A stretch of 64,000 nucleotides of DNA, from the NCBI GenBank assembly GCA_016185545.1, contig JACPNJ010000005.1:167754-231753 (forward strand), given 5' to 3'. The DNA comes from Candidatus Yanofskybacteria bacterium. Its GTDB lineage: Bacteria > Patescibacteriota > Minisyncoccia > 2-02-FULL-40-12 > IGHO2-01-FULL-4-A. Numbering within the stretch: position 1 is the stretch's first letter; every line of letters begins with the position of its first letter. Position numbers and translations under genes: made by a program. The notes below the pieces were generated by a model. It saw only the letters and a program-made list of their open reading frames with translations, was not told the origin of the DNA and ran no database searches. Of the stretch, positions 15,273-40,955 are shown one piece after another.

Positions 15273-15274
15273 AT

Positions 15275-15381
15275 CCCGTTAGAAATTAATCCTAACGGGA
15301 ATAAAAGGTATTTTATTAATATAAGATTGTGAGCTTGCCACCTGTTTAAAGTGGTGGACAGTCCGCAAAACTTCTAACGGG
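15275..15381 (+). repeat. family A palindromic junction element, copy A1
   Basis: terminal inverted repeats cccgttagaa.../...acttctaacggg; inner stem ccacctgtttaaagtggtgg; sits between the TGA of the upstream gene and an ATG. Confidence 0.8.
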
Positions 15382-18258: not shown

Positions 18259-18260
18259 AT

Positions 18261-18381
18261 CCCGTACGAGACACAATGAGTAAACACACAAAAATGGCCG
18301 GTGGCCGGAGTGTCTTTACTGGATAAAATGATAAACTAACTAGGCACGGTTGCGACAGAGTCGCAACCTGTCTCGTACGGG
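18261..18381 (+). repeat. family B palindromic junction element, copy B1
   Basis: terminal inverted repeats cccgtacgagaca.../...tgtctcgtacggg; internal ggttgcgacagagtcgcaacc hairpin; TGA-element-ATG placement. Confidence 0.8.
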
Positions 18382-21348: not shown

Positions 21349-22440
21349 TTACCCTTTTTTATTTAGATTACTTAATATAACATCAATTTCTTTTTTAGCC
21401 ATGTCAAGTGTTATATTTTTCACATCGCCATCGGTACCCTTGAGAACGCGATTAAGTGATCCTGGCGGGCGGTGATACTCTCGCTCATCGGTGGGCCCAA
21501 CTAAGACAAGGTTAGCCACATCAAAGGCATCAGCCGTTACCATTGGGCCGGAATCATTGCCTATGACAAGATCACACTTTGAAATCGCGGCCTTAAATTC
21601 ATCTAGGTTTTGATTAAGCAGGTTAACCGCCGGAACGCCGTCTAAAACCGCGAGCATTGCTGTTATCGGCCCCTCATCTTTACCGGCACCAACAAGCAAA
21701 ATCTTAGCGTTTTGTTCTTCGTAAAAAAATTTAGCTAATTCAGCAAATCTTTCCGCCGGCCACCAGCGCTCGGGCACCGCGCCACCCGGCGCAAAAGCAA
21801 CAATAAAATCGTCCACCGACATATTATTTTGAGTGAAAACATTGTTGATTTTATTTTCAGCTTCTTTGGAAAAATATAACCGGAAATGAGCATCGCCGGT
21901 ATTGGCATTAATTGGCTCCAGCAACTTAAGATATTGTGGCGGGACATATTGACCGGTATAAAACGGCGATGTGATTGCAAATGTTTTTAGAATTGAATAA
22001 GAAACCGAAGTATCTCCTTTGCCGCTCTCGAGTGAAAAAGTAGAAATGGTTTTAATGCCGGCAAGGTATAGCAGAGCAAAACCCATTGTACTGCCAAGAT
22101 TGGCCAAACAAGCAAAATCAATTTTTTCTTTTTTTAATAGTTTAACGACGGTCCAAAAGTTATTTTCGTAATTTATATATTTATCTATATCCGGGTTGTG
22201 TCTGATCACTTCTTCTACCCGACCAGCACCAATAACATATAGTCTGCTATCTGGATACCTGGTCTTAATGGCCCTGAACATGGGCGTGATATAAACAACA
22301 TCGCCCATGTGCGGTTTCCAGCGCAAGATAAGAATCCTTTTGGGGTTTGAGGTAATTTTTTTTGCTCTGCCGCGGAATAAATAATATAAAAGACACAATA
22401 ATAAACTGCCAAGATTTGTAAATTTACTGGATAATTTCAT
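21349..22440 (-). CDS. family 9 glycosyltransferase (ADP-heptose:acceptor heptosyltransferase-like)
   Basis: ILILRWKPHMGDVV and LVIGNDSGPMV GT9 motifs. Confidence 0.75.
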   Translation of the reverse strand: MKLSSKFTNLGSLLLCLLYYLFRGRAKKITSNPKRILILRWKPHMGDVVYITPMFRAIKTRYPDSRLYVIGAGRVEEVIRHNPDIDKYINYENNFWTVVKLLKKEKIDFACLANLGSTMGFALLYLAGIKTISTFSLESGKGDTSVSYSILKTFAITSPFYTGQYVPPQYLKLLEPINANTGDAHFRLYFSKEAENKINNVFTQNNMSVDDFIVAFAPGGAVPERWWPAERFAELAKFFYEEQNAKILLVGAGKDEGPITAMLAVLDGVPAVNLLNQNLDEFKAAISKCDLVIGNDSGPMVTADAFDVANLVLVGPTDEREYHRPPGSLNRVLKGTDGDVKNITLDMAKKEIDVILSNLNKKG

Positions 22441-22547
22441 CCCGTTAGAAGTTTTGCAAACCGGCCACCACTTTGAACAGGTGGCAAACTCACAAATTTT
22501 ATATCAATAAATGCCCTTTATTCCCGTTAGGATTAACTTCTAACGGG
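22441..22547 (-). repeat. family A element, copy A2
   Basis: near-identical reverse complement of A1. Confidence 0.8.
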
Positions 22548-22549
22548 AT

Positions 22550-23407
22550 TCATTTCCTTAAAGTTACGCAAGCCACTGCTCTGGCGGCGGCCACCCCGTC
22601 ATCGTTAATTTTTTTGCCGGTACGGATGTTAAAATATTCCAAACCATCGCATTGCTCCTGTTCACTTATCTGCCAACCATCTTTTGAGTACTTATAGAAA
22701 ACAGTATTAAATTCGGCGGCGCCGAAAGCATCGGCAACTTTTTGCACCATTTGTGAATTAAACTGCTGAAAAAAACCATGGTTTTCGTATCGGCCGAACG
22801 GTACGGTAATAAAAAGTGTTCCGCCCGGCTTCAACATTCTTTTCATTTCAAGAACCGCCGGCAGATAATCGCCGCTGTTTTCCTTGAACCGGTTTTCACC
22901 GGTATATATTTGCGTGTTATCCATTCCTATATGCTCAAGAGTGGAGACACAGGAAATTATATCAAAATTATCGCTTTTGAATGGTGCTTTTCTTATATCG
23001 CTATAAACATACGATACTCCTTTATTCCAAAAACAATTTGATTCCGGATTGAGATTCATTATAAAAAGATTCTTGGGGACAATATTTTTATGTTCAATAA
23101 TTTCCTTAAAATTAAGGGCCGAACCGGCATCCAACATTTCCACACGGTCACCACCGATTTGGGAAATAACCCATGGAATTTCAATGATTCTTTCATCAAT
23201 TCCAATGCCATATTTTTCGGGCAACTTCCCATTATTTTTAAACAGTCTCGATAGTTCATTATTTTTAAGAACTGCGCCAATTTCACGCCATTTATATTCA
23301 AAATAACCCCTGCTCCAAGGCTTGCGGCCGTGCAATTCGTAGGATAATAAATTTCTTCTAGCAATTAAACTTTTTGCAAAATATCTTAATTTTTTGTTAA
23401 ACCCCAT
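22550..23407 (-). CDS. SAM-dependent methyltransferase
   Basis: class I methyltransferase fold (LDAGSALNF...KPGGTLFITVP). Confidence 0.6.
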   Translation of the reverse strand: MGFNKKLRYFAKSLIARRNLLSYELHGRKPWSRGYFEYKWREIGAVLKNNELSRLFKNNGKLPEKYGIGIDERIIEIPWVISQIGGDRVEMLDAGSALNFKEIIEHKNIVPKNLFIMNLNPESNCFWNKGVSYVYSDIRKAPFKSDNFDIISCVSTLEHIGMDNTQIYTGENRFKENSGDYLPAVLEMKRMLKPGGTLFITVPFGRYENHGFFQQFNSQMVQKVADAFGAAEFNTVFYKYSKDGWQISEQEQCDGLEYFNIRTGKKINDDGVAAARAVACVTLRK

Positions 23408-23512
23408 CCCGTTAGAAGTTTTGCAGACCGTCCACCACTTTAAACAGGTGGCAAGTTCACAAGCCTTATATCAATAAATACTTTTTCCCCGTTAGGCTTA
23501 ACTTCTAACGGG
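23408..23512 (-). repeat. family A element, copy A3
   Basis: same termini and interior as A2. Confidence 0.8.
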
Positions 23513-23513
23513 A

Positions 23514-24725
23514 TTAAGCAATACAAATGAAAACTTTACTAAAAATCTCGTTAATCGGCTTCTGATATTTTATCACGAAAAGTTCGCCGTTGTCGTAAAT
23601 TTGGAACACGGTTTTATTGAGGCCCAAGAGCGGTTCCCAAATTTTATTATAAAACCAGCTTGCTTTGGTAAACCGGAAATCGTCATTGTTTGAATAAATC
23701 TGGTTTTCGGAATTGTAGTGGTAGTTGAAGTCCCTTTCGGTTATAAACCCGAGCTGCCTGTTACGCCGATGATATGACAGAAAACAATTTTCAAGAAAAT
23801 CCACTTGGGAAAAAGATATTATCATATCATCCGGATTGACATTCATTTTTTTAACGGCCAAAGCGATTTTGAAATTATTAAATAATTTGCGCGGTTCCAA
23901 TGAATAAAAGATTCTTGGAAAAAATTTAATCTCATCAAAGTACTCCCTTATATCGTCTGGTTTTACAAAATCCCAGCGAGGATGGCGGGAAACGACCAAG
24001 TTTATCTTGGTACTAGGCAAAAAAGACCTTATAAAACGCGCCAGGGATACCGCACTAACCACAAACTCCGTATGCGAAAGGACAAACCAAACTTTACCGT
24101 GAAAATCGGAAAATAGTTCGCGTATATTACGCTCAAAAAGTTCATCTTTTGCGGTGGCTATTCTATTTTCAACAAGCTCTTGTTTGAGGTCGGTTATAAA
24201 AAGTGAGCTTGGCACTTTTGCAAAATATGTTTCGGTAGTCTCAAAGTACTTGTCATTATAGACATTTTTAAAAAGCCGATAAAATAGGTAAGCATTCAGA
24301 CCGAAGCTATAGGCGGAAACCGCCGATGTTGAGTTCACGGCAAAAACACATTTAATTTTTGGAAGATTTTGCCACAAAAACAGTTCAGCCGTTGTTTTGT
24401 CTTGGATTAAATTAAAACCATTTAAGTTTAAAAATAATTGTTTTTTTTCATCAGATGGATGCGGTTTATAATAAAGATCGTACCCACCAAAATTCCGGCG
24501 AATATAATCAAGGCACTCGTTGCATTTAGCAACATAAAACTCCTTGTCTGCAAAACCTGAAGCCAGAATGCCTTTCATATCACTGCCCATAAAAACAACC
24601 ATTTTCGCGCTAAAACCGCTTTTAGAATCCGGTTCTTTTTTGTTTAAACTCAACAAATGAGGCAGTGAAATCCTGACGACATTATTTATTTTTTTATTTA
24701 TACCGACAAATTTTCTTATATCCAT
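23514..24725 (-). CDS. hypothetical GT-B-like transferase with a KPHP motif (paralog of 36483..37706)
   Basis: shares CLDYIR...YDLYYKPHP..FLNL with 36483..37706; HP motif as in CMP-sugar/CDP-alditol transferases. Confidence 0.45.
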   Translation of the reverse strand: MDIRKFVGINKKINNVVRISLPHLLSLNKKEPDSKSGFSAKMVVFMGSDMKGILASGFADKEFYVAKCNECLDYIRRNFGGYDLYYKPHPSDEKKQLFLNLNGFNLIQDKTTAELFLWQNLPKIKCVFAVNSTSAVSAYSFGLNAYLFYRLFKNVYNDKYFETTETYFAKVPSSLFITDLKQELVENRIATAKDELFERNIRELFSDFHGKVWFVLSHTEFVVSAVSLARFIRSFLPSTKINLVVSRHPRWDFVKPDDIREYFDEIKFFPRIFYSLEPRKLFNNFKIALAVKKMNVNPDDMIISFSQVDFLENCFLSYHRRNRQLGFITERDFNYHYNSENQIYSNNDDFRFTKASWFYNKIWEPLLGLNKTVFQIYDNGELFVIKYQKPINEIFSKVFICIA

Positions 24726-24845
24726 CCCGTATGAGACAGGCTGTGATTCTGTCGCAACCGTACCTAGTTAGTTTATCATTGTATCCCGTAAAGACACTTC
24801 GGCCACCAGACCTTCTTGTGTGTTTACCCTTCGTGTCTCGTACGG
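24726..24845 (-). repeat. family B element, copy B2
   Basis: cccgtatgagaca...tgtctcgtacgg; the interior matches the reverse complement of B1. Confidence 0.8.
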
Positions 24846-24871
24846 AATCCATGAGTAAATCTCCGAAAGCC

Positions 24872-26107
24872 CTATTTAGTTTTATAAGCAATGAAGTCTA
24901 CGTGACGAACACCGCATGCACCCTTGAAGAGGTGTTTACATGAATCAATATATGCCTTGACTTCATGTAGGTCTGAATTTTTAACCAAATATACAAATTG
25001 CTTCGCTTCTTTAATAAATTCTGATAACCGAGTTTGCAATGGCTCTAAAACCGATACTTCCTCAAAAGACATATCAACCGCATCAGCTAAATTATTAAAT
25101 TTATCCGCATTAAGTTGAGACTTGGAATTGAAATTTGCAACATAACTGGTCAAGTCTGATAATTCCTTTGAATATTTAAGATAGCCCCCGCCTAGCGCTT
25201 TAACATTTTCCAAATCACCATCTTTTTGTAACAGCCATACGGTTTCTGCAAGAGCAGGCATTCCCGGTATTTCGGCAACATCAAACTTTAACTTATGATG
25301 CACGGAATCTCCAATTACTGGCATTAAAAATGGCGGATAACTTGAATAAAGTTTCAAATTATTTTCTTTTAGCCATTTTAATGTCTCCGCTACGGAAGGA
25401 TCGTCTTGGCTTTGAATTACCCAACGGTCAAATATTATTGCTCTTCGGGTCCGTTTGATAGCCACCTGACTTCGGTCAATATCTTCCTTAAAAAGTTTTT
25501 CACATACATCCACCATATCATCCGGCGATTTGGCATAGTGATACACAGCAAAACGCTGAAGCATGTTTTGAAAACCACCTGCTTTATTAGGATCCCCAAA
25601 AATTAGAAAACCGCCCGGTTTAAGAAATTTGGCAATTTTCTTGAACGCTCCCCGGTTATCTGCAGTATGACTCAAAACTCCTCTACAATGGACGATATCG
25701 TACTTTACAGATGAATCATAATCAAAAATAGATGATTTGATAAACTTGTGCGTACCGCCATTAGAATAGCGCTTAAAAACTTTTTTTGCTATGGCAAGCG
25801 CTTGATCGTTCATCTCTACAAGCGTGCATTTGGCGCCCCATCGCGCTAAAGAAATCGTATTCTCTCCGGTACCAGCACCGAAGTCAATAAGATTGGCATT
25901 AGCAAACATTTTCGGCGGAAATTTAAACAAATCTCTATACATGTATAGCACATTAGCCGTATACTGACGGAATTCTTTTTCTGATTTATCAGAAAAATAA
26001 ATTGAGGGGATTTCCTCCTGAAATGTGCCGAGGGTAGCTTGTTCGACCCGCTTGATTTTAGCAAGTCTTATAGTTTTACTCTTGTGTTTAGTTGATATTT
26101 TTTTCAT
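24872..26107 (-). CDS. SAM-dependent methyltransferase
   Basis: LIDFGAGTGENTISLA motif I; 411 aa. Confidence 0.6.
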   Translation of the reverse strand: MKKISTKHKSKTIRLAKIKRVEQATLGTFQEEIPSIYFSDKSEKEFRQYTANVLYMYRDLFKFPPKMFANANLIDFGAGTGENTISLARWGAKCTLVEMNDQALAIAKKVFKRYSNGGTHKFIKSSIFDYDSSVKYDIVHCRGVLSHTADNRGAFKKIAKFLKPGGFLIFGDPNKAGGFQNMLQRFAVYHYAKSPDDMVDVCEKLFKEDIDRSQVAIKRTRRAIIFDRWVIQSQDDPSVAETLKWLKENNLKLYSSYPPFLMPVIGDSVHHKLKFDVAEIPGMPALAETVWLLQKDGDLENVKALGGGYLKYSKELSDLTSYVANFNSKSQLNADKFNNLADAVDMSFEEVSVLEPLQTRLSEFIKEAKQFVYLVKNSDLHEVKAYIDSCKHLFKGACGVRHVDFIAYKTK

Positions 26108-26213
26108 CCCGTTAGAAGTAGCAACAGCGACAAAAGTTTTAATTACGGCCGCAGTGTCTACTTGAAAAAAAATAACTTTAATTCGTGAACCCGCTAGGTC
26201 TACTTCTAACGGG
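26108..26213 (-). repeat. family A variant element, copy A4
   Basis: same 12-14-bp termini cccgttagaagtag/ctacttctaacggg; different interior. Confidence 0.7.
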
Positions 26214-26226
26214 ATACATTATTAAA

Positions 26227-27360
26227 TTAATCGCAGTAGCTTTCAAGCTTACTATCCCGAACCGTATCAAGAGTACTGCAATGAATACCACCCATAAAAT
26301 AAGAATGCCTGAATGATATCGGGATAGGAGTAATTCCGTGTTTCTCAAGTATTTTCATAAGAGGAATCTGAATTTTATCTACAATGACATGCCCGGGATC
26401 AATGGATAAAAAATTCATTCCAATCCAAGGAGAACTGATGGAGCCAAGGCCGGATTTAACTCCCAGCTTTTCAAGTTCCAGATGAGCCGGTTTTCTGACC
26501 TTTTCGTGAATATCCAAGGTCCTCTGTGGCGTCGGAACAATATCGGAAAAATATATCTTGTCCCATTTTTCAAAAACCGGCGGACAGGTCTCGGGACTGA
26601 CCCGTGTAGCATTCAGCATAACCAGACCCGGACGCAATGCCATGGCTGTTGAATCTATGTGGCTTGAGCGATAGATCTCGCTCGTAGTATGGACCCTATA
26701 TTCATCACCCAAAACACTCTGGAGCCATTTGGCGCCGATATTATTACCGGACCGAGAAACAAGATATAAAAGATCCTTGCCCATTCTTAAAGTATTAGCG
26801 GCTTCAAATAATATCTCATCTTCAGTCAGTCGTGTGTATTTTTGTCCGTCATCATATTGGGATTTACCCTCAACGGTATAAACTTCCATGTGGTCGCCTG
26901 GCACGCGCGGCTTAGGACCGGCTACCCACCTAAAACCGCCTTCTTTAAAATACTCGTACAAAACCGGATATAAACCCATGGCTTCAAAATACCTGTGCTG
27001 TTCCTGCGACGGTGATTCAATGACATTACCGCCGACCACTAAATGCAGATCCCTCATATTATAGACATGGTCACCGACTGCGGAGAAAAATGGTGTCGTA
27101 AATAATTTATTGTTATGGGAAATATCGGGACGAAACACTTTCACGCCAAACGATTTTAAAACATTACAAAGCCCCTCTAAATCTTCGTTAATTTCATCAG
27201 TAAGCCACTGGGGATAAGCCTGGCGGGCTAATTTAACTGATTTTTCTAAAAGATCTTCTGAAACTAAGCCATGTTTAAATACCAAGGGAGCATGGCCATC
27301 TCCCCGGCCAACAATTATTTCTCTCAATTTATCCCACTCATTGTGGCTGTTTATTTTCAT
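26227..27360 (-). CDS. amidinotransferase-family protein
   Basis: N-terminal INSHNEWDKLREIIVG (amidinotransferase signature) and C-terminal GGIHCST catalytic-Cys motif. Confidence 0.65.
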   Translation of the reverse strand: MKINSHNEWDKLREIIVGRGDGHAPLVFKHGLVSEDLLEKSVKLARQAYPQWLTDEINEDLEGLCNVLKSFGVKVFRPDISHNNKLFTTPFFSAVGDHVYNMRDLHLVVGGNVIESPSQEQHRYFEAMGLYPVLYEYFKEGGFRWVAGPKPRVPGDHMEVYTVEGKSQYDDGQKYTRLTEDEILFEAANTLRMGKDLLYLVSRSGNNIGAKWLQSVLGDEYRVHTTSEIYRSSHIDSTAMALRPGLVMLNATRVSPETCPPVFEKWDKIYFSDIVPTPQRTLDIHEKVRKPAHLELEKLGVKSGLGSISSPWIGMNFLSIDPGHVIVDKIQIPLMKILEKHGITPIPISFRHSYFMGGIHCSTLDTVRDSKLESYCD

Positions 27361-27483
27361 CCCGTTAGAGGCAGGTTACGCTCTTTGAGCGTAACCGTAC
27401 CCAAATAGTTTAAATGATAATTCCCGTTTGTATGTTTCTTGCACCGCTATTCTTGATTAATTGCCTGTTGTGCCTCTAACGGG
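27361..27483 (-). repeat. family A variant element, copy A5
   Basis: termini cccgttagaggc/gcctctaacggg; internal ggttacgctctttgagcgtaacc hairpin. Confidence 0.7.
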
Positions 27484-28584
27484 ACGAGTCATCATTCTCA
27501 TTATATTAGCATGGTCTTCTCTGGCAATCTCGTATTTGCTTTTATTCAACTGGCTTGGATCATCCCGTACGAGACAGGTTGCGACCCTGTCGCAACCGTG
27601 CCTAGTTAGTTTATCATTATCTCCAACAGGGACACTCCGACCACCGGCCTTTTTTGTGTGTTTATTCGTCGTGTCTCGTACGGGATCATCCCTAGGAAAC
27701 ATATTGGATTTAAAACCGCATTCAACGCCCAATTGACTTAAAATCTTAAGAGTACTGTCATTGTAAGAATTGGCAGGATGGGCCATGTCCACGGGCGGCC
27801 TGCCGCAAACTCTTTGTATGTGTTCATAATTTTTTTGATACTCTTCTTGCTGTCGTTCAAAAGGAAGTTCGGCAAGCATCATGGGGTGTGAATATGAATG
27901 CAGTCCGATTACATGGCCTTGCCTATTTAAGTAAGCAAGGTTTTCATTTGACATCCATATGTTTTTAGAAAGATCGGCCAAATTCAACCCTTGGTCTTGA
28001 ATAATCGCATCCATAATTATTTCAAATTCCTCACGGCTTAACACGCGATCCCTAATCAAACGAAAGCGCATGTCATTGGTTGAGTAAAACGGGAAAGTCT
28101 TGGAATACCTTACCATATCGGTCTCTTCTAAAACTTTCCTGGCATTATTTCCAAATTTTGATTGAAAAATTTTATCAAAAAAAATATTGTAAAAGTCATC
28201 AATATCTTTAAAAAACTTAGAGCGAAAAACCCGATAAATTTCAAATTTGCCAAGGCCGCCCTCAAATACACTGGAATAGACGAACCAAAATGCTTTTAGG
28301 TTGTACTTGTCCAAAACCGGCAAGACAACATCAAATTGACATAATAGCCCATCATCCAGGGTTATGCAAACATCCCGATTGGTTAATTGGTTCGCCCCCA
28401 ATCGCTTAAGCCATTCTTTAGGATCAAGTATCCGATCTAATCCTACAAACATAAGAATGGCTTCAAAATCCGACATTGATATCGAACCTTGCCCTTTGTA
28501 ATGTTTCCGTTCGTCATGAAAATGATGGAACATTATCCCGTGAGCAACCGAACTGAGATATTTTTTTTTAGATAATTCGCTCAA
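27457..28584 (-). CDS. polysaccharide deacetylase (NodB-homology domain); the 3' ~230 nt of the ORF reads through elements B3 and A5
   Basis: ITLDDG NodB motif and HSYSHP His motif; the frame stays open through the repeat elements, so the true C-terminus is uncertain. Confidence 0.6.
   Translation of the reverse strand: MSELSKKKYLSSVAHGIMFHHFHDERKHYKGQGSISMSDFEAILMFVGLDRILDPKEWLKRLGANQLTNRDVCITLDDGLLCQFDVVLPVLDKYNLKAFWFVYSSVFEGGLGKFEIYRVFRSKFFKDIDDFYNIFFDKIFQSKFGNNARKVLEETDMVRYSKTFPFYSTNDMRFRLIRDRVLSREEFEIIMDAIIQDQGLNLADLSKNIWMSNENLAYLNRQGHVIGLHSYSHPMMLAELPFERQQEEYQKNYEHIQRVCGRPPVDMAHPANSYNDSTLKILSQLGVECGFKSNMFPRDDPVRDTTNKHTKKAGGRSVPVGDNDKLTRHGCDRVATCLVRDDPSQLNKSKYEIAREDHANIMRMMTRPVRGTTGN
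27564..27684 (-). repeat. family B element, copy B3
   Basis: cccgtacgagaca...tgtctcgtacggg; in tandem with A5. Confidence 0.8.
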
Positions 28585-29725
28585 TTTTTTTAATATCTAA
28601 ATAATCCTCGGAAGAAAAACTTAAACCCGAGGTAATTTTTTGAAAGCCCTCGTAAAAACGCGGCTCACTGACAAGGTTATGAATATTGGCAGTTGGTACA
28701 AGAATCAACATTTCATTATTAACCCATGCTTCTTTATTGGAGTCGTTGGAACCCATAAGAGCTTCGTGCAGTTTGTCGCCGACACGATCTCCAATGTATT
28801 TTATTTTTATCACAGCCCCAGAAGACCGCTGCTTCAGTCGTGGATGATTGGGTCTTCTGGGGCTGGATTCCGCCCCACGGTCAAGCCGCCAAGCTTGACT
28901 GTGGGTGATGGTACCACGGGCTTGGCCGTGGGGCTCCATTTTTTTTCCAGAGTAATATTTTTTTATAAATATACTGGCTAGATCTCCCAAGCGGATTGAC
29001 GGCATTTTCAAAATAAAAATTTCACCGCCCGAACAAAGCTGGGCCGCTTTCAGAGTCAAACTAACGGCTTGTTTTATGGACATGAGAAAGCGGGTCGCGT
29101 CTTTGTTGGTAACATTAATCGCGCCGCTGGCTTCTACTTGTTTTACCCACATCGGCAGTACTGAACCATCGGCCCAGGCAACATTGCCGAATCTTACACA
29201 GGCAAGCTTCATTTTATCTCCCAGAAAAAAACTGGAATTTATAAAAAGCTTCTCCATCATAAGCTTGGAAGCGCCAAGCACATTTAAGGGGTTGGCAACT
29301 TTATCCGTGGAAATGGCAATAATTTTTTCAACACCGGCGTGCAAAGCCGCGTCAATAATATTATGTGAACCGACAATGTTAGTTTTCATCGCTTCTGACG
29401 GATTATACTCGCAAAACGGAACATGTTTTAAGGCGGCGGCGTGAAAAACTATGTCTACATTTTTAAAAGCAAGATGTAAACGCTCTTGGTCTCTTATGTC
29501 TCCAATCAACATCCTTAAGTTTTTTGGGTAACGAAGCGCCTCCAATAGGTGGTATTGGCGTGTTTCATTTCTGGATAAAACCCTGATCTGCTTCGGCTTG
29601 GACTTTAAAAGCTGGCGAACCAGTTCTGCGCCAATACTACCAGTGCCTCCAGTTACCAAAATGGTTTTATTTTGAAACTCGTTAATCATAGAAAACAACT
29701 TAAAAATGCAAACCTCAAATCTCAA
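28568..29725 (-). CDS. UDP-GlcNAc 4,6-dehydratase (PseB/FlaA1/CapD-like), with an in-frame 43-aa insertion
   Basis: ILVTGGTGSIG...VLSRNE...HAAALKHVP...YIGDRVGDKLHEAL; 385 aa versus ~335 for homologs. Confidence 0.75.
   Translation of the reverse strand: MRFEVCIFKLFSMINEFQNKTILVTGGTGSIGAELVRQLLKSKPKQIRVLSRNETRQYHLLEALRYPKNLRMLIGDIRDQERLHLAFKNVDIVFHAAALKHVPFCEYNPSEAMKTNIVGSHNIIDAALHAGVEKIIAISTDKVANPLNVLGASKLMMEKLFINSSFFLGDKMKLACVRFGNVAWADGSVLPMWVKQVEASGAINVTNKDATRFLMSIKQAVSLTLKAAQLCSGGEIFILKMPSIRLGDLASIFIKKYYSGKKMEPHGQARGTITHSQAWRLDRGAESSPRRPNHPRLKQRSSGAVIKIKYIGDRVGDKLHEALMGSNDSNKEAWVNNEMLILVPTANIHNLVSEPRFYEGFQKITSGLSFSSEDYLDIKKIERII
28811..28939 (-). repeat. GC-rich triple-hairpin element inserted in-frame in a coding sequence
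   Basis: 129 nt at ~62% GC versus ~40% background; stems gccccagaagacc/ggtcttctggggc, cccacggtcaagc/gcttgactgtggg, ccacgg/ccgtgg. Confidence 0.6.
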
Positions 29726-30150
29726 AATGTAATTTAAAATTCCAAACTATTTTCTGCCTTTCATGGTTAGTACGCCAGCGCCAATAATTTTAGAAATTTC
29801 TTCGGCTTCTTTAAGCAATGGGTTAATTTGATTTCTTAAATTAGGCGTACTTTCAATGAGCAAAATCAACCAATATTTTGTCTCATTAGAACTCTTAAGA
29901 GCAATCTGAAAAAATTTTAAATAATCCAATTTTGAGCTAGCGGCTCGAGCTTCGAAAACGTTGGCTCCAACTGAAGTTGCAGATCGAATCAGTTGATCGG
30001 CTATCGCCCACAAATTCCTACTTTTTCTTACTTCTCCACAAAGTTTAATTATTGCTAAAGAAAAATCAATAAGCCGTTTATTAAATTGCATTTTAAAATT
30101 TACATTTTCATTTTGCATTTTGAGATTTGAATTTTGAATTGGGTAATTTT
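29703..30150. mobile_element. inverted-repeat-bounded module carrying a four-helix-bundle (23S rRNA IVS-type) protein gene
   Basis: AT-rich inverted-repeat arms with core caaatctcaaaatg (29703-29746; 30092-30150, reverse complement) flank the ORF. Confidence 0.55.
29747..30118 (-). CDS. four-helix-bundle protein (23S rRNA intervening-sequence protein family)
   Basis: WAIADQLIRSATSVGANVFEA...YLKFFQIALKSSNETKYWL is characteristic; the first 9 codons lie in the inverted-repeat arm, so the probable start is MQFNK (~30091). Confidence 0.7.
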   Translation of the reverse strand: MQNENVNFKMQFNKRLIDFSLAIIKLCGEVRKSRNLWAIADQLIRSATSVGANVFEARAASSKLDYLKFFQIALKSSNETKYWLILLIESTPNLRNQINPLLKEAEEISKIIGAGVLTMKGRK

Positions 30151-31270
30151 AACTATACTTTTTCAGGACATTAGCAAGGGTATGTGAAATATACTTAATA
30201 TCTTTCTCTTTCAATCCTATATAAAAAGGCAGGGCCAGCGACGACTGACTGACCGCTTCCGAAACAGGAAAGTCCCCTTCTTTGAAACCAAATTTGTCTT
30301 TATAAAAACTGAACAGGTGAATAGACGGCAAATATGGCTTAGTGCTTATTCCTATTTTTTGTAAATCTTCTATAACTCGGTTTCTATCGGTTTTCTTATT
30401 TTTTATCTTTATCACATACACAAACCAGGTAGGATTATTACCTTCGGCTATCTTTGGGGCCTCTACAAGACCAGAAAACGTCTCTAAATGCTTGCTATAC
30501 CAGCCAGCGAGCGCTTGTCTATGTTTTATCATAAAATCGAGCTTCTGCAATTGGGCAGTACCCAAAGCCGCACTCATTTCGTCCATTCTATAATTATATC
30601 CAAGATACTGATGGTCTAACCATTGCATATTCTCGGCTCGACCCTGATTGCGCAAGCTCGCACAAAGCTCATATATTTTCCTGTTGTTTGTTACGACCAT
30701 CCCGCCTTCAGCTGTGGTTATTTGCTTATTGGGGTAGAAAGCAAAAACAGCCGATTCGCCAAAAGTGCCGACCTTTTTCCCCTTATATTCAGCACAAATG
30801 CTTTCGCAGGCATCTTCAATTATTTTAAGTTTATGTTTTTTGGCAATTTTAATTATCGGGTCCATGTCCACCGCCTGGCCGAAAATATGGACTACCAAAA
30901 TGGCTTTTGTTCTTTTAGTAAGACGTTTCTCAATTTCGGCCGGTTCCATGTTATAAGTAACAGGGTCTATATCAACAAAAACCGGCTTCGCGCCGACATA
31001 CAAAATACAATTTGCTGACGCAATAAAAGAAAATGGGGTAGTTATCACTTCGTCGCCTGGACCGATACCAGCAGCGATCATTGCTAGATGCAGACCGGCC
31101 GTACCGCTTGATACGGCACAGGCGTATTTTGTGCCGATTTTTCTGGCAAACAACATTTCAAATTCTTTATACTTGGGGCCTAAGCTTAAATTTCCAGAAC
31201 GCAAAACTTCGAGAACTGTTCGTTCTTCTGATTTCGTTATGTAAGGTTTTGCCAGTTGATATTTAGACAT
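30149..31270 (-). CDS. DegT/DnrJ/EryC1/StrS-family PLP-dependent sugar aminotransferase
   Basis: AFYPNKQITTAEGGMVVTN (Lys/PLP motif); 373 aa. Confidence 0.8.
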   Translation of the reverse strand: MSKYQLAKPYITKSEERTVLEVLRSGNLSLGPKYKEFEMLFARKIGTKYACAVSSGTAGLHLAMIAAGIGPGDEVITTPFSFIASANCILYVGAKPVFVDIDPVTYNMEPAEIEKRLTKRTKAILVVHIFGQAVDMDPIIKIAKKHKLKIIEDACESICAEYKGKKVGTFGESAVFAFYPNKQITTAEGGMVVTNNRKIYELCASLRNQGRAENMQWLDHQYLGYNYRMDEMSAALGTAQLQKLDFMIKHRQALAGWYSKHLETFSGLVEAPKIAEGNNPTWFVYVIKIKNKKTDRNRVIEDLQKIGISTKPYLPSIHLFSFYKDKFGFKEGDFPVSEAVSQSSLALPFYIGLKEKDIKYISHTLANVLKKYS

Positions 31271-31303: not shown

Positions 31304-31705
31304 TTATTTTAATTTACTCACTATCTTGGCCGGACATCCGAAAGCAATAACGTTTGGGGGTAAATTCTTGGTAACTAAACTGCATGCCCCAACGGTCGTA
31401 TTTCTTCCAACCCTTACTCCGGGCAATACGACACTATGGGCCCCGATTCTGCAACCTTCTTCCAACACGACTCTTCCCCTTTTCCCGTCTATTGTTGACA
31501 CTGAATATATATGGCAACCGCCACCGATCTCAACCCGATCTCCTATCTCAACCCCAGCCTGAGCGTTGATATAGGTAAAAGCCCCGATGTCAGTCTCTTT
31601 GCCCAATTTTAAGCCGGAAAGACCCTGAACCATCCAATTCCATTTAGTTAACTTGCCTTCTTTAATTATCGGTTTTTTCCAATTTTTAAATCTTTGTTTT
31701 GCCAT
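31304..31705 (-). CDS. left-handed beta-helix (hexapeptide) N-acetyltransferase (PglD/NeuD/LegH-like)
   Basis: hexapeptide repeats IGDRVEIGGGCHI...IGAHSVVLPGVRVG. Confidence 0.7.
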   Translation of the reverse strand: MAKQRFKNWKKPIIKEGKLTKWNWMVQGLSGLKLGKETDIGAFTYINAQAGVEIGDRVEIGGGCHIYSVSTIDGKRGRVVLEEGCRIGAHSVVLPGVRVGRNTTVGACSLVTKNLPPNVIAFGCPAKIVSKLK

Positions 31706-31716: not shown

Positions 31717-32874
31717 TTAGTATGTTATTTGCTTTGTTAATAATCTGGAGTTGATATTAATATTTTCCAGTATTTTTGCAACTCTCGGACCGGTCTTGCC
31801 ATCCCCCCAAGGATTTTTAATTTTCTTGAGCCGCTTTAAATATGCTTGATCATTAATAGATTTATAAACGGCTTTTTCTATTTCTTTCTTGTTATAGCCA
31901 ACGTCAATAACATTGGCACCGCGTTGCCGTCCCGTCTGACGAGTACCGACATTCACCACCGGGGTTTGGAAAGAAGACGACTCTATTATAGCGCCGCTTG
32001 AATTCCCCACCCAAACCGCGGTTTCCCGTTCCAGAGCAAGAAATTGCTTGTATTCCAAACTTGGAAATATATGAAAAAGCGGATTGTTTTTTTCTTTTTC
32101 TATGACACTTATAATTTTTCTGCCGCCGGCATCAGCGTGGGGATAAGTTATCACAACAGGCAAATTGAATTTTTTTACTGCCGCCAAGGTTTCTTCCATC
32201 TGCAGACCGGCGTTTTCTACTTCTTCGCTGACGGGGTGCTGAGTCACCAAAATAACATTCTTGCTTGGATCAAGATTCAATTTTTTAAAAAATTCCTTTT
32301 TTGTCGGCAGTTTCTCATTTAATATTACGTCCAATGCCGGCGCGCCCACAATATGGATTCTCCATTTTTCCTCGCCCATTTTTTGAATACGGTCAGCCGA
32401 TTCTTGAATCGCCGGAAAATGAATATGTGATAATTTCGTAATGGCGTGGCGGGCCAGCTCATCAACGGTGGAAGTTTTGTCGCCTCCATGAACATGGCCG
32501 GTGGGAATTCCAAGGTATAAGCAAGCCATGGCCGTGCAAAGCATCTCCGGCCTATCACCAAGAGTCAAAACAAAATCAGGCCTATTTTTGCTAAAAGCCC
32601 CTACCAATCTACTTAAAAAAACGCCTGTAAATTTCGTCATGCCCGGTCTGTCACCTGTTTCAAATCTTGCTTCTATATTTATTGCATTGGGAAATTCTTT
32701 TCTGACATACTGCACTGTTTCTCCAAATTCCGGCATCAGATGAGTCCCCGCGGCATAAACTTGTAAATCAAGCTGCTTGCTTCGGCTAATGGCCTTGAGT
32801 ATTGGGGTCATCAATCCAAAATCAGCGCGAGTACCGGATATATATGCAATTTTTTTCTTATTTTTTAAAATCAT
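31717..32874 (-). CDS. neuC: UDP-N-acetylglucosamine 2-epimerase (hydrolysing), NeuC/LegG-like
   Basis: YISGTRADFG...HVHGGD signature. Confidence 0.8.
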   Translation of the reverse strand: MILKNKKKIAYISGTRADFGLMTPILKAISRSKQLDLQVYAAGTHLMPEFGETVQYVRKEFPNAINIEARFETGDRPGMTKFTGVFLSRLVGAFSKNRPDFVLTLGDRPEMLCTAMACLYLGIPTGHVHGGDKTSTVDELARHAITKLSHIHFPAIQESADRIQKMGEEKWRIHIVGAPALDVILNEKLPTKKEFFKKLNLDPSKNVILVTQHPVSEEVENAGLQMEETLAAVKKFNLPVVITYPHADAGGRKIISVIEKEKNNPLFHIFPSLEYKQFLALERETAVWVGNSSGAIIESSSFQTPVVNVGTRQTGRQRGANVIDVGYNKKEIEKAVYKSINDQAYLKRLKKIKNPWGDGKTGPRVAKILENININSRLLTKQITY

Positions 32875-33913
32875 TTTTTGATATTAAAACATCGGCTTTT
32901 ATATCTTTTACTGCTTTACTGCCTAAAACTTTAAAATAATATTTTGGCTCAAGTCCGGTTCCAGGACGTTTTATGCCTATATTATTGGCAGTAAATAACT
33001 CCCCTCTTTTTGTATCCTTTATAGAAACAATGCTTTTTCTGGCTATGTTCCTTAATGAAAGTTCCTCTGGGGTTGGTTTTTTAACCCGAGATCCCAGTAT
33101 AGCTCCGGTATTTTTAATAGCCGAGATCATTTGACGCAGTTCTTCCGATTCAACAGAGGCATTGTGGTCGGGACCTGGCATATTTTTATCCAAGGTCATA
33201 TGCTTTTCTATTAAAACAGCACCTAGGGTAGCAGCCATAATCGGTACATTAATTCCCAAAGTGTGGTCGGAGTATCCAACTAGAACGCCGAATTTTTCTT
33301 TTAACGCGGCCATTGCCCGAAGATTTACATTTTCAGGCGGACAGGGATATTCAGTGGTGCAATGGAGGAGGATTATTTTATTGTTGCCAGTTTTTTTAAT
33401 ATGGCTTACGGCTCTTTTCACTTCTTCCGTGGTTGCCATTCCAGTGCTTATAATCATCGGCTTGCCTATTTTTGCGGCATATTCCAATACAGGAAGATTC
33501 GTCAAATCACCAGAGCCAAACTTAAAAGCCGGGACTCCTAAGTCATTAAGAAAACCAACGGATTCAAATCCTCCATGGGGAGTAGATAAAAAAATGATGC
33601 CAATTTTTTTACAATGGGCCATAATAGGTTGGTAAAATTTTTCGTTTAGTTCCAGTTTTTTGAGCATTGCCACCTGGCTTTCAATTTTTCCGATGTTTTT
33701 TATTTGGTAAGCAGCCATGGGAACGCTAGCCAGAGCTACTTGTTCGGCTTTGAAAGTTTCAAATTTTACCGCATCCGCGCCCGAATTTTTTGCGACATCA
33801 ATCAATTTAAGAGCCAGCTCAATAGAGCCATTATGATTAACCCCGGCTTCAGCAATAACAAAAACCGGTTTATTAAAACCGACTTCTTTATTTCCGATTT
33901 TTATCGTCTCCAT
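32858..33913 (-). CDS. neuB: N-acetylneuraminate-synthase-family nonulosonic acid synthase (NeuB/LegI/PseI) with a C-terminal SAF domain
   Basis: VFVIAEAGVNHNGS...DAVKFE. Confidence 0.85.
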   Translation of the reverse strand: METIKIGNKEVGFNKPVFVIAEAGVNHNGSIELALKLIDVAKNSGADAVKFETFKAEQVALASVPMAAYQIKNIGKIESQVAMLKKLELNEKFYQPIMAHCKKIGIIFLSTPHGGFESVGFLNDLGVPAFKFGSGDLTNLPVLEYAAKIGKPMIISTGMATTEEVKRAVSHIKKTGNNKIILLHCTTEYPCPPENVNLRAMAALKEKFGVLVGYSDHTLGINVPIMAATLGAVLIEKHMTLDKNMPGPDHNASVESEELRQMISAIKNTGAILGSRVKKPTPEELSLRNIARKSIVSIKDTKRGELFTANNIGIKRPGTGLEPKYYFKVLGSKAVKDIKADVLISKNDFKK

Positions 33914-33955: not shown

Positions 33956-34738
33956 CTATATCGTCCACCCGCCGTCAACGACAATATTCTGGCCGGTAAT
34001 ATAAGCGGAAGCATCGGATAACAAAAACAGCAGCGCTCCGGCAACATCTTCCTGTTTGGCCATGCGGCGCGGCGCCAATTTGACTTTCCCAACATATCTT
34101 TTTACAAACGATTCCGGCTGATTATCAAACACCCCCCCGGGAGATATGGCGTTAACCCGGATGCCGTGCGGCCCCAAGTAAGACGCAAGATATCTAGCCA
34201 GGTTGACGATGCCGCCCTTTATTGCCGCGTATTCCACCGGCATGGTCATATGCGTCCCTTCGTAAATTTCAAATTTAGGAGCGGCTATTCCATAGATTGA
34301 GCCCATCAATACGATACTGCCTCCCTTTTGTTCTTTCATTGTCCGCGACACTTCCTTGGTCATCAGGAAATATCCCCCCAAATGAGTTGACAGGTTGTCG
34401 CAAAAATCCTCATAAGTCACATCTTCAAACTTTCTCCCATAATTTTTGTTTCTGGGATAAGCGCAATTTACCAGAGCATCAATTCTTCTAAATTTTTTGA
34501 GAATATTTTTAATGGCTCTTTTAACGCTCGCCGGTTTGGTAATGTCGCATTGCTGAAATAAAATATTTTTATTTTTGGTATCACGGACAAGGCGGCCAGC
34601 GAGATTTTTGCCCGTTTTAGGATTGGTATCAATGATAACCACCTTGGCCCCGTTTTCGGCGCAAGCTCTGCAAAAAGCCGAGCCAATTAGACCGGCCCCG
34701 CCGGTAATAACACAAACTTTCCTCGCGATATTAAACAT
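33956..34738 (-). CDS. short-chain dehydrogenase/reductase
   Basis: VITGGAGLIGSA Rossmann motif. Confidence 0.7.
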   Translation of the reverse strand: MFNIARKVCVITGGAGLIGSAFCRACAENGAKVVIIDTNPKTGKNLAGRLVRDTKNKNILFQQCDITKPASVKRAIKNILKKFRRIDALVNCAYPRNKNYGRKFEDVTYEDFCDNLSTHLGGYFLMTKEVSRTMKEQKGGSIVLMGSIYGIAAPKFEIYEGTHMTMPVEYAAIKGGIVNLARYLASYLGPHGIRVNAISPGGVFDNQPESFVKRYVGKVKLAPRRMAKQEDVAGALLFLLSDASAYITGQNIVVDGGWTI

Positions 34739-35678
34739 TGTTTTGTTTTAACGCTAGGGCATTTTTCAAATCCCCTAGCGCCTCGTTAAAATTACTATGC
34801 TTCACGCGTTTTAAAACTTTTTTAATAAAAAACGATAGCTCGTTAAGATACATTTTATTTCCGTCAACTTTAACATTTATAAACGATTCTCTTTTCGGCA
34901 ATCTTACGGCTATTTCGTTTTTTAAACTGTCCCAAGTGGCTGTTCCCTTGTCTCCGATTATTTCGCAGTATCTCCGACCCGGATATCGAAGGTAATCTTG
35001 GTGAATTGAAACCACGGTTCCTGTTTTTGACTCAAATACTCCTTCGGCTATATCCTCCGATTTTATATTAAACATTCCCGCTCTTTTTACCAGTCCGGCT
35101 TTAAATTTTATATTTTCATCAATCAGCCAAGCCGGATAATTTATTTCGTGAATCAGGTCCAGCACTACGCCTCCGCCCCTTTGGGCATCATACGAATATA
35201 TTTTTTTATAATCTCTTTTTCGCCAAGTCCTTAAATCTTGGCCGACTGAAGCTCTTATAAAAACCGGCCGGCCGATTATTTTCTTTTTTATTATCTTTTT
35301 TAATTCAATAATCGGTTTATGAAACTGGAGGCAATAGCCGACAAAAAATACCGGCGTCCTGCTTAGAAGTTTTTTTATTTCATTTGCTTTTTTCAAATTA
35401 TGAAATAGCGGTTTCTCAACAAATATTCCTTTTGGCTTTTGCTTTAGGCATTTAATTATCGCGTCAGCGTGTTTGTATGTTTCATTGGTTATGAAAAATA
35501 CATCGGCCGTATTTTTGAAAAATTCATTTTCTGATTTAAAAATTTCGTCCTTTAAAAATAAATCAGTCCTTTTGGTTAGAATTTTAACCTTGACCCTTGG
35601 ATAGAGTTTTTTAATATTCCGGTAATGCCTTCCACCGATTGAACCGAATCCAATTATGCCAATAGTTTTTATCATCAT
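34731..35678 (-). CDS. Gfo/Idh/MocA-family oxidoreductase
   Basis: N-terminal IGIIGFGSIGGRH NAD-binding motif. Confidence 0.7.
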   Translation of the reverse strand: MMIKTIGIIGFGSIGGRHYRNIKKLYPRVKVKILTKRTDLFLKDEIFKSENEFFKNTADVFFITNETYKHADAIIKCLKQKPKGIFVEKPLFHNLKKANEIKKLLSRTPVFFVGYCLQFHKPIIELKKIIKKKIIGRPVFIRASVGQDLRTWRKRDYKKIYSYDAQRGGGVVLDLIHEINYPAWLIDENIKFKAGLVKRAGMFNIKSEDIAEGVFESKTGTVVSIHQDYLRYPGRRYCEIIGDKGTATWDSLKNEIAVRLPKRESFINVKVDGNKMYLNELSFFIKKVLKRVKHSNFNEALGDLKNALALKQNNV

Positions 35679-35680
35679 CT

Positions 35681-35768
35681 AAATTCAAAAAGCAAATCTC
35701 AAATCTCAAAATCTAATTTATAATTAAAAACTTTCATTTTGGATTTTGAGATTGAAATTTTGAATTTT
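35681..35768. repeat. 'caaatctcaaaat' AT-rich palindromic hairpin (empty copy of the 4HB-module inverted repeat)
   Basis: gcaaatctcaaatctcaaaatc ... gattttgagattg. Confidence 0.65.
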
Positions 35769-36476
35769 TTTCTCTATTTTCTTTTTGTGGGCAAATATAG
35801 TTTCCGCCAAAATCCAATCTTCTATGCCGTCCAAATCAATTGAGCGCCATTTCGGACAGACAACGCCGCGGGTATCGGCATTAATAAATTTTCTGGTTTT
35901 TATAAATTCATTGATTCTTATCATATAGACCATACAGCCATTGAGCAAATAACCGGCGGGCCAAACCTGCCTATTGGTGCTTTCTTTTTCAATTTTATTT
36001 GCCAAAATTAATTTGCCTTGGTCATCTAAATGATAAAGACGCGGATGCGTGTCACATATTGTACAGACGGATCTGACCTTGGAATCTAGCATCCGTTTCC
36101 AGCATTTTTTGATATCGGATATTTCTCTCAATGGCGAAGTTGTTTGTAAAAGAGTTATTATATCCGGCTCATAACCATCCTCTTCTTTTAGTCTTTTAAG
36201 TAGAAGTAAAACGGCGTCAACGACAGGCGATTTATCACCAGCCAACTCCTTGGGCCTTAAAAACGGCACCTCGGCGCCGTATTTTCTGGCCACTGCGGCG
36301 ATTTTCTCATCTTCTGTATCTACAACAATCCTATCAAACAAGCCGGTTTCCCTGGCTTGCTCTATGGCATGTGCAATTAGCGGTTTACCATGAAAAATTT
36401 TGATATTCTTGCCGGGTATGCCTTTAGACCCGCCTCTGGCCGGAATAATGGCTAAATTTTTTATTGATTTTTGCAT
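35724..36476 (-). CDS. neuA: acylneuraminate cytidylyltransferase (CMP-nonulosonic acid synthetase, NeuA/LegF/PseF-like)
   Basis: AIIPARGGSKGIPGKNI...TSPLR; the last ~14 codons are encoded by the palindromic repeat. Confidence 0.8.
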   Translation of the reverse strand: MQKSIKNLAIIPARGGSKGIPGKNIKIFHGKPLIAHAIEQARETGLFDRIVVDTEDEKIAAVARKYGAEVPFLRPKELAGDKSPVVDAVLLLLKRLKEEDGYEPDIITLLQTTSPLREISDIKKCWKRMLDSKVRSVCTICDTHPRLYHLDDQGKLILANKIEKESTNRQVWPAGYLLNGCMVYMIRINEFIKTRKFINADTRGVVCPKWRSIDLDGIEDWILAETIFAHKKKIEKKIQNFNLKIQNESF

Positions 36477-37706: not shown

Positions 37707-37715
37707 GAGTAGAAT

Positions 37716-37800
37716 AATTTAAACCTCAAATCTCAAAACTCAAAATTTAAATTTTGAATTTTAAATTACATTTTGAGATTTGAGATTTGCATTTTGAATT
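37716..37800. repeat. 'caaatctcaaaat' AT-rich palindromic hairpin (second empty copy)
   Basis: aacctcaaatctcaaaactcaaaattt ... cattttgagatttgagatttgcatttt. Confidence 0.65.
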
Positions 37801-37876
37801 CATTAAAAATACGGCTCTTTTAATGCCGTATTAATTTACCATAAAAACAAGGGTATGGCTAGATCAAAATATACTC

Positions 37877-40934: not shown

Positions 40935-40955
40935 AACCGGCATAAAACCGGTTTT

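Follow-up and report, generated by a model that had tools for sequence, protein, structure and literature searches.

A Glu-variant amidinotransferase clade coupled to CE4 deacetylases in nonulosonic acid gene clusters: a predicted route to guanidino-modified surface sugars

Within a sugar-pathway gene cluster of a Candidatus Yanofskybacteria bacterium lies a gene for an amidinotransferase of the StrB1/AGAT family that is predicted to place a guanidino group on a nonulosonic acid (NulO). The window, by which is meant the whole 64,000-nucleotide stretch of DNA that was analysed (GenBank assembly GCA_016185545.1, contig JACPNJ010000005.1, positions 167,754 to 231,753 of the forward strand), carries this gene at 26227..27360 on the minus strand, between a predicted CE4 de-N-acetylase gene directly upstream and a gene for an S-adenosylmethionine (SAM)-dependent methyltransferase directly downstream. 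The full mechanism, in which the amidinotransferase works within this CE4-amidinotransferase-methyltransferase cassette to give a guanidino NulO of the legionaminic acid (Leg) type, seems on balance probable, if not by much. The enzyme family and its chemistry are already known. What appears to be new is an unannotated clade, recognizable by the motif EILFEAAN, an insertion and coupling to CE4, together with its setting in NulO pathways and the sugar modification predicted from it. A broader reading is held more tentatively and falls just short of being probable, namely that guanidino, and possibly N-methylguanidino, Leg-type NulOs constitute a new class of surface sugar, made by a mobile three-gene cassette that has spread across distant, mostly uncultured lineages (SAR11, Prochlorococcus, candidate phyla radiation (CPR) bacteria and DPANN archaea).

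The open reading frame (ORF) of the amidinotransferase begins with ATG and encodes 377 amino acids (aa). It was found where the preliminary description had placed it, as were the two motifs on which that description had relied, an N-terminal SHNEWDKLREIIVG at residues 5-18 and GGIHCST at residues 357-363, which holds Cys361. In a phmmer search of the PDB the protein matches StrB1 (8.6e-69, over query residues 3-275 and 309-375), SxtG (4e-49, over query residues 3-375), AGAT (~1e-45) and HsvA (1.8e-40). Homologs number 1019 at E<=1e-10, most of them nameless or labelled hypothetical in public records. Exact copies of the protein were seen only on short Logan contigs. The closest, 89% identical, comes from a Candidatus Yanofskybacteria metagenome-assembled genome (MAG), and the closest homologs as a group are from CPR MAGs, e.g., those of Yanofskybacteria and Giovannonibacteria. 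Given the near-full-length PDB matches and the 1019 homologs, this is not a chance ORF. The Pfam ADI model (PF02274), which the preliminary description had proposed as a check, does give a C-terminal match, confined to the last 55 residues and below its cut-off (E 0.017, 14.6 bits vs 22.8), and an NCBIfam search of the protein gave no match. An AlphaFold2 (AF2) model of the protein has a predicted local distance difference test (pLDDT) score of 73 and a predicted template modelling (pTM) score of 0.78, with low-confidence loops at residues 105-118 and 144-174. Foldseek searches with this model return StrB1, SxtG, HsvA and AGAT at E 1e-28 to 1e-23 and template modelling (TM) scores of 0.62-0.72, the best being StrB1 (E 2.5e-28, TM 0.67-0.72, 35% identity), whereas the hydrolases DDAH, arginine deiminase (ADI) and ArgZ appear at ~1e-9 with 12-15% identity. 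Amidinotransferases thus rank ~15-19 orders of magnitude ahead of DDAH and ADI by fold. For the EILFEAAN clade the Pfam and NCBIfam models are uninformative, and comparison with solved structures is decisive. The gene product almost certainly belongs to the amidinotransferase branch (EC 2.1.4.x) of the guanidino-group-modifying enzyme superfamily, whose beta/alpha-propeller fold the AF2 model reproduces, in agreement with the family first proposed for it; the hydrolase branch (arginine deiminase, DDAH, agmatine deiminase), considered as the closest kin, was rejected, with both sequence and fold favouring the transferases.

Relative to StrB1-like enzymes the protein carries a 36-residue insertion at approximately residues 275-310 (26431..26538, minus strand), where family representatives have 12-17 residues. 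A long helix is predicted by AF2 at residues 279-298, in a block with pLDDT 77-92. The insertion is common to the clade and its nearest Asp-type sisters. In a locus from an Actinomycetota MAG (L048, 9977-11171) the homolog is divided between overlapping ORFs at 9977-10744 and 10716-11171, which probably reflects a frameshift, a pseudogene or an error of assembly.

Conservation of individual residues was read from two alignments, one of 121 sequences comprising the query and its 120 closest homologs, and one of the wider family, in which 115 sequences, each representing a 50% cluster, join the query and four of its close homologs to make 120. Cys361 (codon 26278..26280, minus strand), the catalytic nucleophile, aligns with AGAT C407 and StrB1 C332, and the surrounding GGIHCST with GGFHC; it is Cys in 120 of the 121 close homologs, with one gap. 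His234 (codon 26659..26661, minus strand) aligns with AGAT H303 and StrB1 H227, its motif SSHIDST aligning with STHVDST. This His, Asp236 two codons past it (aligned with AGAT D305) and Asp104 (aligned with AGAT D170) are each present in 121/121. Arg253 and Ser310 align with AGAT R322 and S355 and do not vary among 18 aligned sequences of the clade. We take the AGAT residues D170, H303, D305, C407, R322 and S355 to be those of catalysis and arginine binding. The position of the triad Asp is held by Glu186 (codon 26803..26805, minus strand), which lies in EILFEAAN, in gap-free alignment with FDAAN/FDAAD, and aligns with AGAT D254 and StrB1 D179. It is Glu in all 121 close homologs. The Cys/His/Asp triad anticipated in the preliminary description is therefore preserved in its Cys and His and altered in its acid, so that it reads Cys-His-Glu. 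Across the wider family the triad acid is Asp in 99 of the 120 aligned sequences and Glu in 18, the Glu cases being scattered. The readable copies linked by gene context all have Glu except that of one locus (L022), and these include 11 recovered independently via the partner gene.

ADI and DDAH carry Glu at the equivalent triad position. A hydrolase with a Cys-His-Glu triad, be it an amidino- or guanidino-hydrolase or a deiminase that trims, for example, a sugar amidine, would account for the invariant replacement of the AGAT/StrB1 Asp. Such an activity is nevertheless highly improbable, for the overall sequence and fold are firmly among the transferases and Glu occurs sporadically throughout the transferase family. 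Furthermore, the window has no homolog of an AsnB-type amidotransferase found in a related locus (L092, see below), and Pfam scans of the window revealed no PP-loop amidotransferase, so nothing found there would first install an amidine. The ornithine carbamoyltransferase gene that follows the amidinotransferase gene in another locus (L027, see below) fits the release of ornithine by transfer, although an ornithine-releasing arginine hydrolase would fit as well. The Glu appears to be a tolerated and recurrent variant in the family that has become fixed in the EILFEAAN clade, and is not in itself evidence of inactivation. The exchange was also considered as a sign of lost or hydrolytic activity and set aside as the principal reading, in view of the 18 Glu cases in 120 and the transferase-like sequence and fold.

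The preliminary description had placed the gene in a glycan island, and this setting holds: a same-strand run of sugar-pathway genes extends from 38839 down to 21349, and all of the genes described in this paragraph lie on the minus strand. The CE4 gene (27457..28584; Pfam Polysacc_deac_1, 6.5e-18) has its motifs TLDDG and HSYSHP intact in alignment. No signal peptide is visible by eye in either the CE4 protein or the amidinotransferase, and this fits cytoplasmic action on soluble intermediates. On the downstream side is the class-I SAM methyltransferase of 411 aa (24872..26107; Pfam Methyltransf_23, 5.5e-18), a candidate for methylating the newly formed group. A role like that of GAMT, as a guanidino N-methylase, was considered and set aside, only generic class-I similarity being seen, and methylation could be on N or on O. 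Upstream of the CE4 gene are a PseB/LegB-like dehydratase for nucleoside diphosphate (NDP)-GlcNAc, 4,6-dehydration of which is the first pathway step (28568..29725; Pfam Polysacc_synt_2, 6e-89; NCBIfam PseB, 6.9e-86, under its cut-off), a DegT-family, LegC/PseC-like aminotransferase (30149..31270; Pfam 3.9e-122, with NCBIfam PseC and LegC matches), and a small hexapeptide-repeat acetyltransferase of the LegH/NeuD-like kind (31304..31705; NCBIfam NeuD/PglB/VioB, 2.3e-18, under its cut-off). These are followed by a hydrolysing NDP-sugar 2-epimerase of the NeuC/LegG type (31717..32874; NCBIfam NeuC_NnaA, 392.6 bits, cut-off 235.9), a nonulosonic acid synthase of the NeuB/LegI type (32858..33913; Pfam NeuB and SAF; NCBIfam NeuB_NnaB, 438.6 bits, cut-off 399.65), short-chain dehydrogenase/reductase (PtmA-like) and GFO/IDH/MocA oxidoreductases that recur in related loci (33956..35678), and a LegF/PseF-type cytidylyltransferase that would form the cytidine monophosphate (CMP)-NulO (35724..36476; Pfam CTP_transf_3, 2.2e-25; NCBIfam PseF, 2.7e-47, under its cut-off). 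PseG was not found among the window genes scanned with Pfam and NCBIfam. The presence of dehydratase, aminotransferase, acetyltransferase, NeuC epimerase, NeuB and CMP-transferase genes, with no PseG found, indicates that the cluster is one predicted to make a legionaminic-acid-type NulO.

Two further minus-strand genes flank this set, encoding proteins of 403 aa (23514-24725) and 407 aa (36483-37706) with no NCBIfam match; for one of the pair Pfam gives a weak match, below threshold, to alpha-2,8-polysialyltransferase. Since both match the same ORF in the most closely related locus (L015), the two are apparently paralogs; they are candidate NulO transferases.

The association of these genes extends well beyond the window. 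Forty-one loci were retrieved by clade-specific peptide motifs, so that the counts given here describe the EILFEAAN clade rather than the whole family, and one pair among them (L007 and L018) is redundant. They derive from CPR bacteria, Saccharibacteria, a DPANN archaeon, Binatia, Rokubacteria, Pirellulales (Planctomycetota), Dehalococcoidia/SAR202, Acidobacteriota, Leptospiraceae, Magnetovibrio, six SAR11 genomes and a Prochlorococcus single-cell genome, among others. By profile searches, a CE4 gene of the same subfamily lies within 300 nt of the amidinotransferase gene in 32 of the 41 loci; counted at any distance within the locus, the number rises to 37, and only 38 such genes were present in the 762 kb searched. 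The CE4 gene is usually on the same strand as the amidinotransferase gene, and the two overlap in the loci examined gene by gene. Overlapping or abutting genes on one strand fit enzymes that catalyse consecutive steps. A SAM methyltransferase gene is found within 1.5 kb of the amidinotransferase gene in 30/41 loci, and 25/41 have both partners within these distances. A homolog of the window's own 411-aa methyltransferase is present in 21/41, usually abutting. Genes for NeuB (28/41), CMP-transferase (29/41) and 2-epimerase (24/41) are frequent, many of the contigs being incomplete. The amidino- or guanidino-modified sugar suggested in the preliminary description is strengthened by this conserved CE4-amidinotransferase-methyltransferase module in NulO clusters, although the predicted carrier would be a Leg-type NulO and not the aminocyclitol-like substituent also envisaged there.

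Several loci depart from the common arrangement. The Acidobacteriota locus L027 (9968-12254) has an amidinotransferase of the Glu type that shares ~55-57% identity with the query; its gene comes after genes for immunoglobulin (Ig)-like repeat proteins and before one for ornithine carbamoyltransferase. There is no CE4 gene, and the locus is not a NulO cluster. The related locus L028 is likewise without CE4. The gene content of L027 fits ornithine recycling after an arginine-dependent amidino transfer, presumably to a different acceptor, and the adjacency of an enzyme that would recycle the ornithine by-product counts in favour of transfer. The SAR11 locus L046 also has no CE4 gene; there the amidinotransferase gene is flanked by nucleotidyltransferase, dehydratase and DegT aminotransferase genes, neighbours through which a sugar amine could be supplied directly. 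In the locus of the DPANN archaeon AR10 (L040, 8599-12022) an ATP-grasp ligase gene lies beside the amidinotransferase gene, and a divergent CE4 gene is on the opposite strand.

The coupling was also viewed from its other partner, in a reciprocal scan of metagenome contigs with the CE4 alignment as query. Among CE4 homologs at least 44% identical to that of the window, 10 of 11 have an amidinotransferase gene as neighbour, the remaining contig being too short to show one. Among more distant CE4 relatives (34-47% identical, mostly marine), no amidinotransferase gene was found in the 26 loci with room on both sides, about one third of which have NeuB, epimerase or CMP-transferase genes within 6 kb. 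In seven of these loci the CE4 gene is followed by a gene of ~261-265 aa that overlaps it by a few bases (L069, 5974-7729; L082, 5971-7727; L095, 5983-7751; L105, 3234-4987; and, by gene size and position, L075, L076 and L098). All four of the ~261-265-aa genes that were scanned match Formyl_trans_N above the Pfam cut-off, and CE4 with this formyltransferase is likely to be a cassette for exchange of N-acetyl for N-formyl on NulOs. In one further locus (L092, 5983-8878) an AsnB-type glutamine amidotransferase of 639 aa comes directly after CE4. Since an amidinotransferase, a formyltransferase or an AsnB-type amidotransferase may be found after CE4, this slot appears to hold interchangeable enzymes that each need a free amine.

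From these arrangements we infer which acceptor and which nitrogen are modified, in what order the steps proceed and what the methyltransferase does. The CE4 enzyme, apparently cytoplasmic, would strip an N-acetyl group from the NulO or from a nucleotide-sugar precursor and leave a free amine. In the window the acetyl group removed would most likely be that at N5, which derives from GlcNAc, given that N7 has a LegH-like acetyltransferase of its own. The amidinotransferase would then load the amidino group of arginine on Cys361 as a thiouronium intermediate, with release of ornithine, and pass it to the sugar amine. The resulting guanidino group would be a charged isostere of acetamidino and would make the sugar zwitterionic. 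This new group may then be methylated, in the manner of PtmH, by the SAM methyltransferase encoded downstream. The product would be a CMP-activated 5-guanidino-7-acetamido-3,5,7,9-tetradeoxynonulosonic acid, subsequently transferred to a surface glycan. Its NulO moiety has a predicted composition of C12H22N4O7 and a mass of 334.1488 Da, or 348.1645 Da in the N-methyl form. Di-N-acetyl-legionaminic acid (Leg5Ac7Ac), at 334.1376 Da, lies only 0.011 Da from the guanidino product, a gap at which low-resolution analyses, were the proposal true, could have missed it.

The nitrogen that receives the amidino group may be a different one. In an alternative that we regard as unlikely, though worth weighing, amidination takes place on the 4-amino group of an NDP-4-amino-4,6-dideoxy-hexosamine (later N7), and CE4 separately strips the N5 acetyl, leaving N5 as a free amine or as the site for another group. 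Unlike substituents of this kind do occur together, the CMP-NulOs of Ca. Kuenenia stuttgartiensis having one free and one formylated amine (bioRxiv 10.64898/2026.04.20.719630), and the SAR11 amidinotransferase gene of L046, which stands beside DegT and dehydratase genes with no CE4, would suit amidination at this stage. So would the scarcity of the LegH-type acetyltransferase, found in under half of the loci; with detection in 13/41 only, this enzyme was discarded as a guide to the modified nitrogen. Modification at N7 is disfavoured by the window itself and by L005, both of which keep a LegH/PglD-type acetyltransferase in the cluster, by the abutting or overlapping of CE4 and amidinotransferase genes on one strand in most loci, and by 5-N-formyl-legionaminic acid, in which N5 is naturally replaced. 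Amidination of the N5 amine freed by CE4 remains the preferred assignment for the window.

The acceptor might also be a small amine, such as an amino acid or polyamine, with the guanidino acid so formed being ligated to the freed sugar amine or having no relation to glycans at all. This is distinctly unlikely. AGAT does act on glycine and HsvA on polyamines, the DPANN locus L040 has its ATP-grasp ligase gene beside the pair, and NulOs N-acylated with amino-acid-derived groups are known (PMC8157484). In most loci, however, no ligase or acyltransferase was noted beside the pair; StrB1, the closest solved relative, uses a cyclitol amine and not an amino acid; and the same CE4-coupled slot can hold a formyltransferase, which needs the sugar amine itself. 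Direct transfer to the sugar amine is accordingly the route retained in the proposed mechanism.

The glycan island also contains numerous palindromic, MITE (miniature inverted-repeat transposable element)-like sequences. At least nine copies of an element of ~110-135 nt lie between 15273 and 27686, at approximately 15273-15383, 15386-15667, 18259-18383, 22439-22549, 23406-23514, 24724-24848, 26106-26215, 27359-27485 and 27562-27686. The terminal inverted repeats are of ~17 nt and have the form ATCCCGTWMGAG...CTCKWACGGGAT, with 19 half-sites in place of the 0.5 expected by chance, and the interiors fall into at least two subtypes. Copies outside the CE4 gene occupy the intergenic spacers almost end to end and extend over start codons, among them the ATG of the amidinotransferase gene. 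One copy folds far better than shuffled sequence (z = -8). An Rfam scan of the window gave no matches, so that the elements belong to no known RNA family, and the closest relative (L015) is practically devoid of them. Within the CE4 gene one copy forms an in-frame, stop-free insertion of ~45 codons (27557-27691), and the dehydratase gene has an in-frame, stop-free insertion of 43 codons (~28805-28935) that consists of a GC-rich double hairpin with arms at 28813-28865 and 28872-28934. In-frame palindromic elements occur within Rickettsia genes, and the CE4 and dehydratase insertions resemble them.

These insertions raise the prospect of local decay, in which CE4 and dehydratase have been inactivated and an intact amidinotransferase is left without substrate, a state that is compatible with the other readings and is judged improbable. 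Both insertions are missing from all homologs and coincide with the palindromic or hairpin elements. Two independent neutral insertions would be unlikely both to be stop-free and in frame, as these are, and both sit where homologs show gaps or length variation. Moreover, the conserved CE4 C-terminal residues E352, R355, D357 and H358 are intact after the insertion, and the amidinotransferase is full length with all key residues. A functional cassette in the window, as the guanidino-NulO mechanism requires, is thus the preferred reading. Another apparent insertion lies between the dehydratase and aminotransferase genes, where a gene for a 123-aa 'four helix bundle protein' (29747-30118, minus strand; TIGR02436, 88.6 bits, cut-off 24) is enclosed by the 42-nt arms, 76% complementary, of an inverted repeat (29705-29746 and 30099-30140) and looks like an inserted cassette.

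A number of points weigh against the proposed mechanism. No guanidino product has been observed. No report of a guanidino-NulO was found in the literature searched, nor any paper linking amidinotransferases to nonulosonic, legionaminic or pseudaminic acids; the main text of the SugarBase preprint lists no species at 334.149 or 348.165 Da, and the text of a 2020 mass-spectrometry survey of NulOs has nothing relevant. The triad Asp is Glu, as in the hydrolases ADI and DDAH, and amidino transfer with Glu is a prediction, although Glu recurs across the wider family. The CE4 and dehydratase insertions could impair these enzymes, and the absence of signal peptides rests on inspection by eye. The 41 loci were found through motifs specific to the clade and include the redundant pair, and the infrequent detection of the hexapeptide acetyltransferase among them makes the N5 assignment weak outside the window. 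The two Kuenenia enzymes, deacetylase and formyltransferase, seem to have different nitrogens as their targets, so that deacetylation followed by derivatization of the same nitrogen is not guaranteed.

Beyond the Leg-type genes, the window has a second ulosonic-acid-like gene set at 36483-45161. It includes a second NeuB-family synthase (37877-38839), under the equivalog cut-offs, as well as a SIS-domain protein, a DegT aminotransferase, a GFO oxidoreductase, a HAD hydrolase and an APH-family kinase. Radical SAM/SPASM genes are present both in this set (41981-43237) and at 12356-13630.

On many microbial surfaces NulOs form the outermost sugars and determine recognition, and charge and antigenicity are set by the groups on their nitrogens (acetyl, acetamidino, formyl, and others). 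If the proposal is true, an anionic sugar of the cell surface would be turned zwitterionic, which would affect recognition by phage, grazers and hosts. It would also add a new modification together with a biosynthetic logic, deacetylation followed by re-derivatization, in which the partners can be swapped, and would give a new role to enzymes so far associated with the pathways to creatine, streptomycin, and toxins. Carriers of the cassette include bacteria that are among the most abundant in the sea, as well as members of the CPR and DPANN with essentially uncharacterized surfaces, and for these it offers a concrete and testable way into glycobiology. The clade is invisible to standard annotation, with a sub-threshold Pfam match, none in NCBIfam and the label 'hypothetical' in public records, and the EILFEAAN motif with an adjacent CE4 gene offers a usable marker for it.

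Among known systems, the closest in genetic architecture is that of Ca. Kuenenia stuttgartiensis, in which the Leg-type cluster carries a deacetylase and a formyltransferase (bioRxiv 10.64898/2026.04.20.719630). The window cassette matches this placing of a deacetylase beside an amine-derivatizing enzyme in a Leg-type cluster. That the Kuenenia products are CMP-NulOs implies that modification precedes glycan assembly, at the level of the nucleotide sugar. The system differs in its partner, a formyltransferase, and in its product, which is N-formyl or a free amine and not guanidino. N-formylation is known elsewhere as well, 5-N-formyl-legionaminic acid being a natural sugar with a predicted formyltransferase in the leg cluster of Halorubrum sp. 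PV6 (PMC6137143). No deacetylase is mentioned in that paper, and HrrPV6_1052, considered as the Halorubrum deacetylase, was rejected, that paper giving no description of it.

A functional analogy, rather than shared membership, is provided by the PtmG/PseA-type enzymes and PtmH of Campylobacter, which give Leg5Am7Ac and Leg5AmNMe7Ac. The outcome is similar in that an N-acetyl group of a Leg/Pse sugar becomes a cationic group of the amidine type that is subsequently N-methylated. PtmG is an ATP-dependent amidotransferase that replaces the acetamido oxygen with an imine in place, giving acetamidino without deacetylation. Both enzyme family and chemistry are thus unrelated to those of the window amidinotransferase. 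The Ptm amidotransferase and methyltransferase genes lie between leg genes (SugarBase preprint).

Closer kinship is found within the amidinotransferase family itself. HsvA, a polyamine-modifying enzyme of Erwinia amylovora, and SxtG of saxitoxin synthesis are family members with solved structures and are strong matches to the window protein. They differ in using small-molecule acceptors and in belonging to virulence or toxin pathways, and SxtG has FDAAD at the triad position. AGAT (GATM) shares the fold and the covalent Cys mechanism, and in the creatine pathway the succession of AGAT and GAMT, an amidinotransferase and then a SAM methyltransferase, resembles the pairing seen in 30/41 loci. 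Its acceptor is glycine and its triad acid is Asp254, and the window methyltransferase is without specific similarity to GAMT. The best match in both sequence and fold is StrB1 (PDB 1bwd), the L-arginine:inosamine-phosphate amidinotransferase of streptomycin biosynthesis, which has its catalytic Cys and His, along with the aligned Asp and Arg residues, in common with the window enzyme. StrB1 has Asp179 where the window enzyme has Glu186, is without the 36-residue insertion, and belongs to an antibiotic pathway rather than a NulO operon. Its acceptor amine is supplied by a transaminase, and we know of no CE4 deacetylase coupled to it. StrB1 amidinates the amine of an aminocyclitol to give a guanidino group, the same chemistry as that proposed here for the window enzyme.

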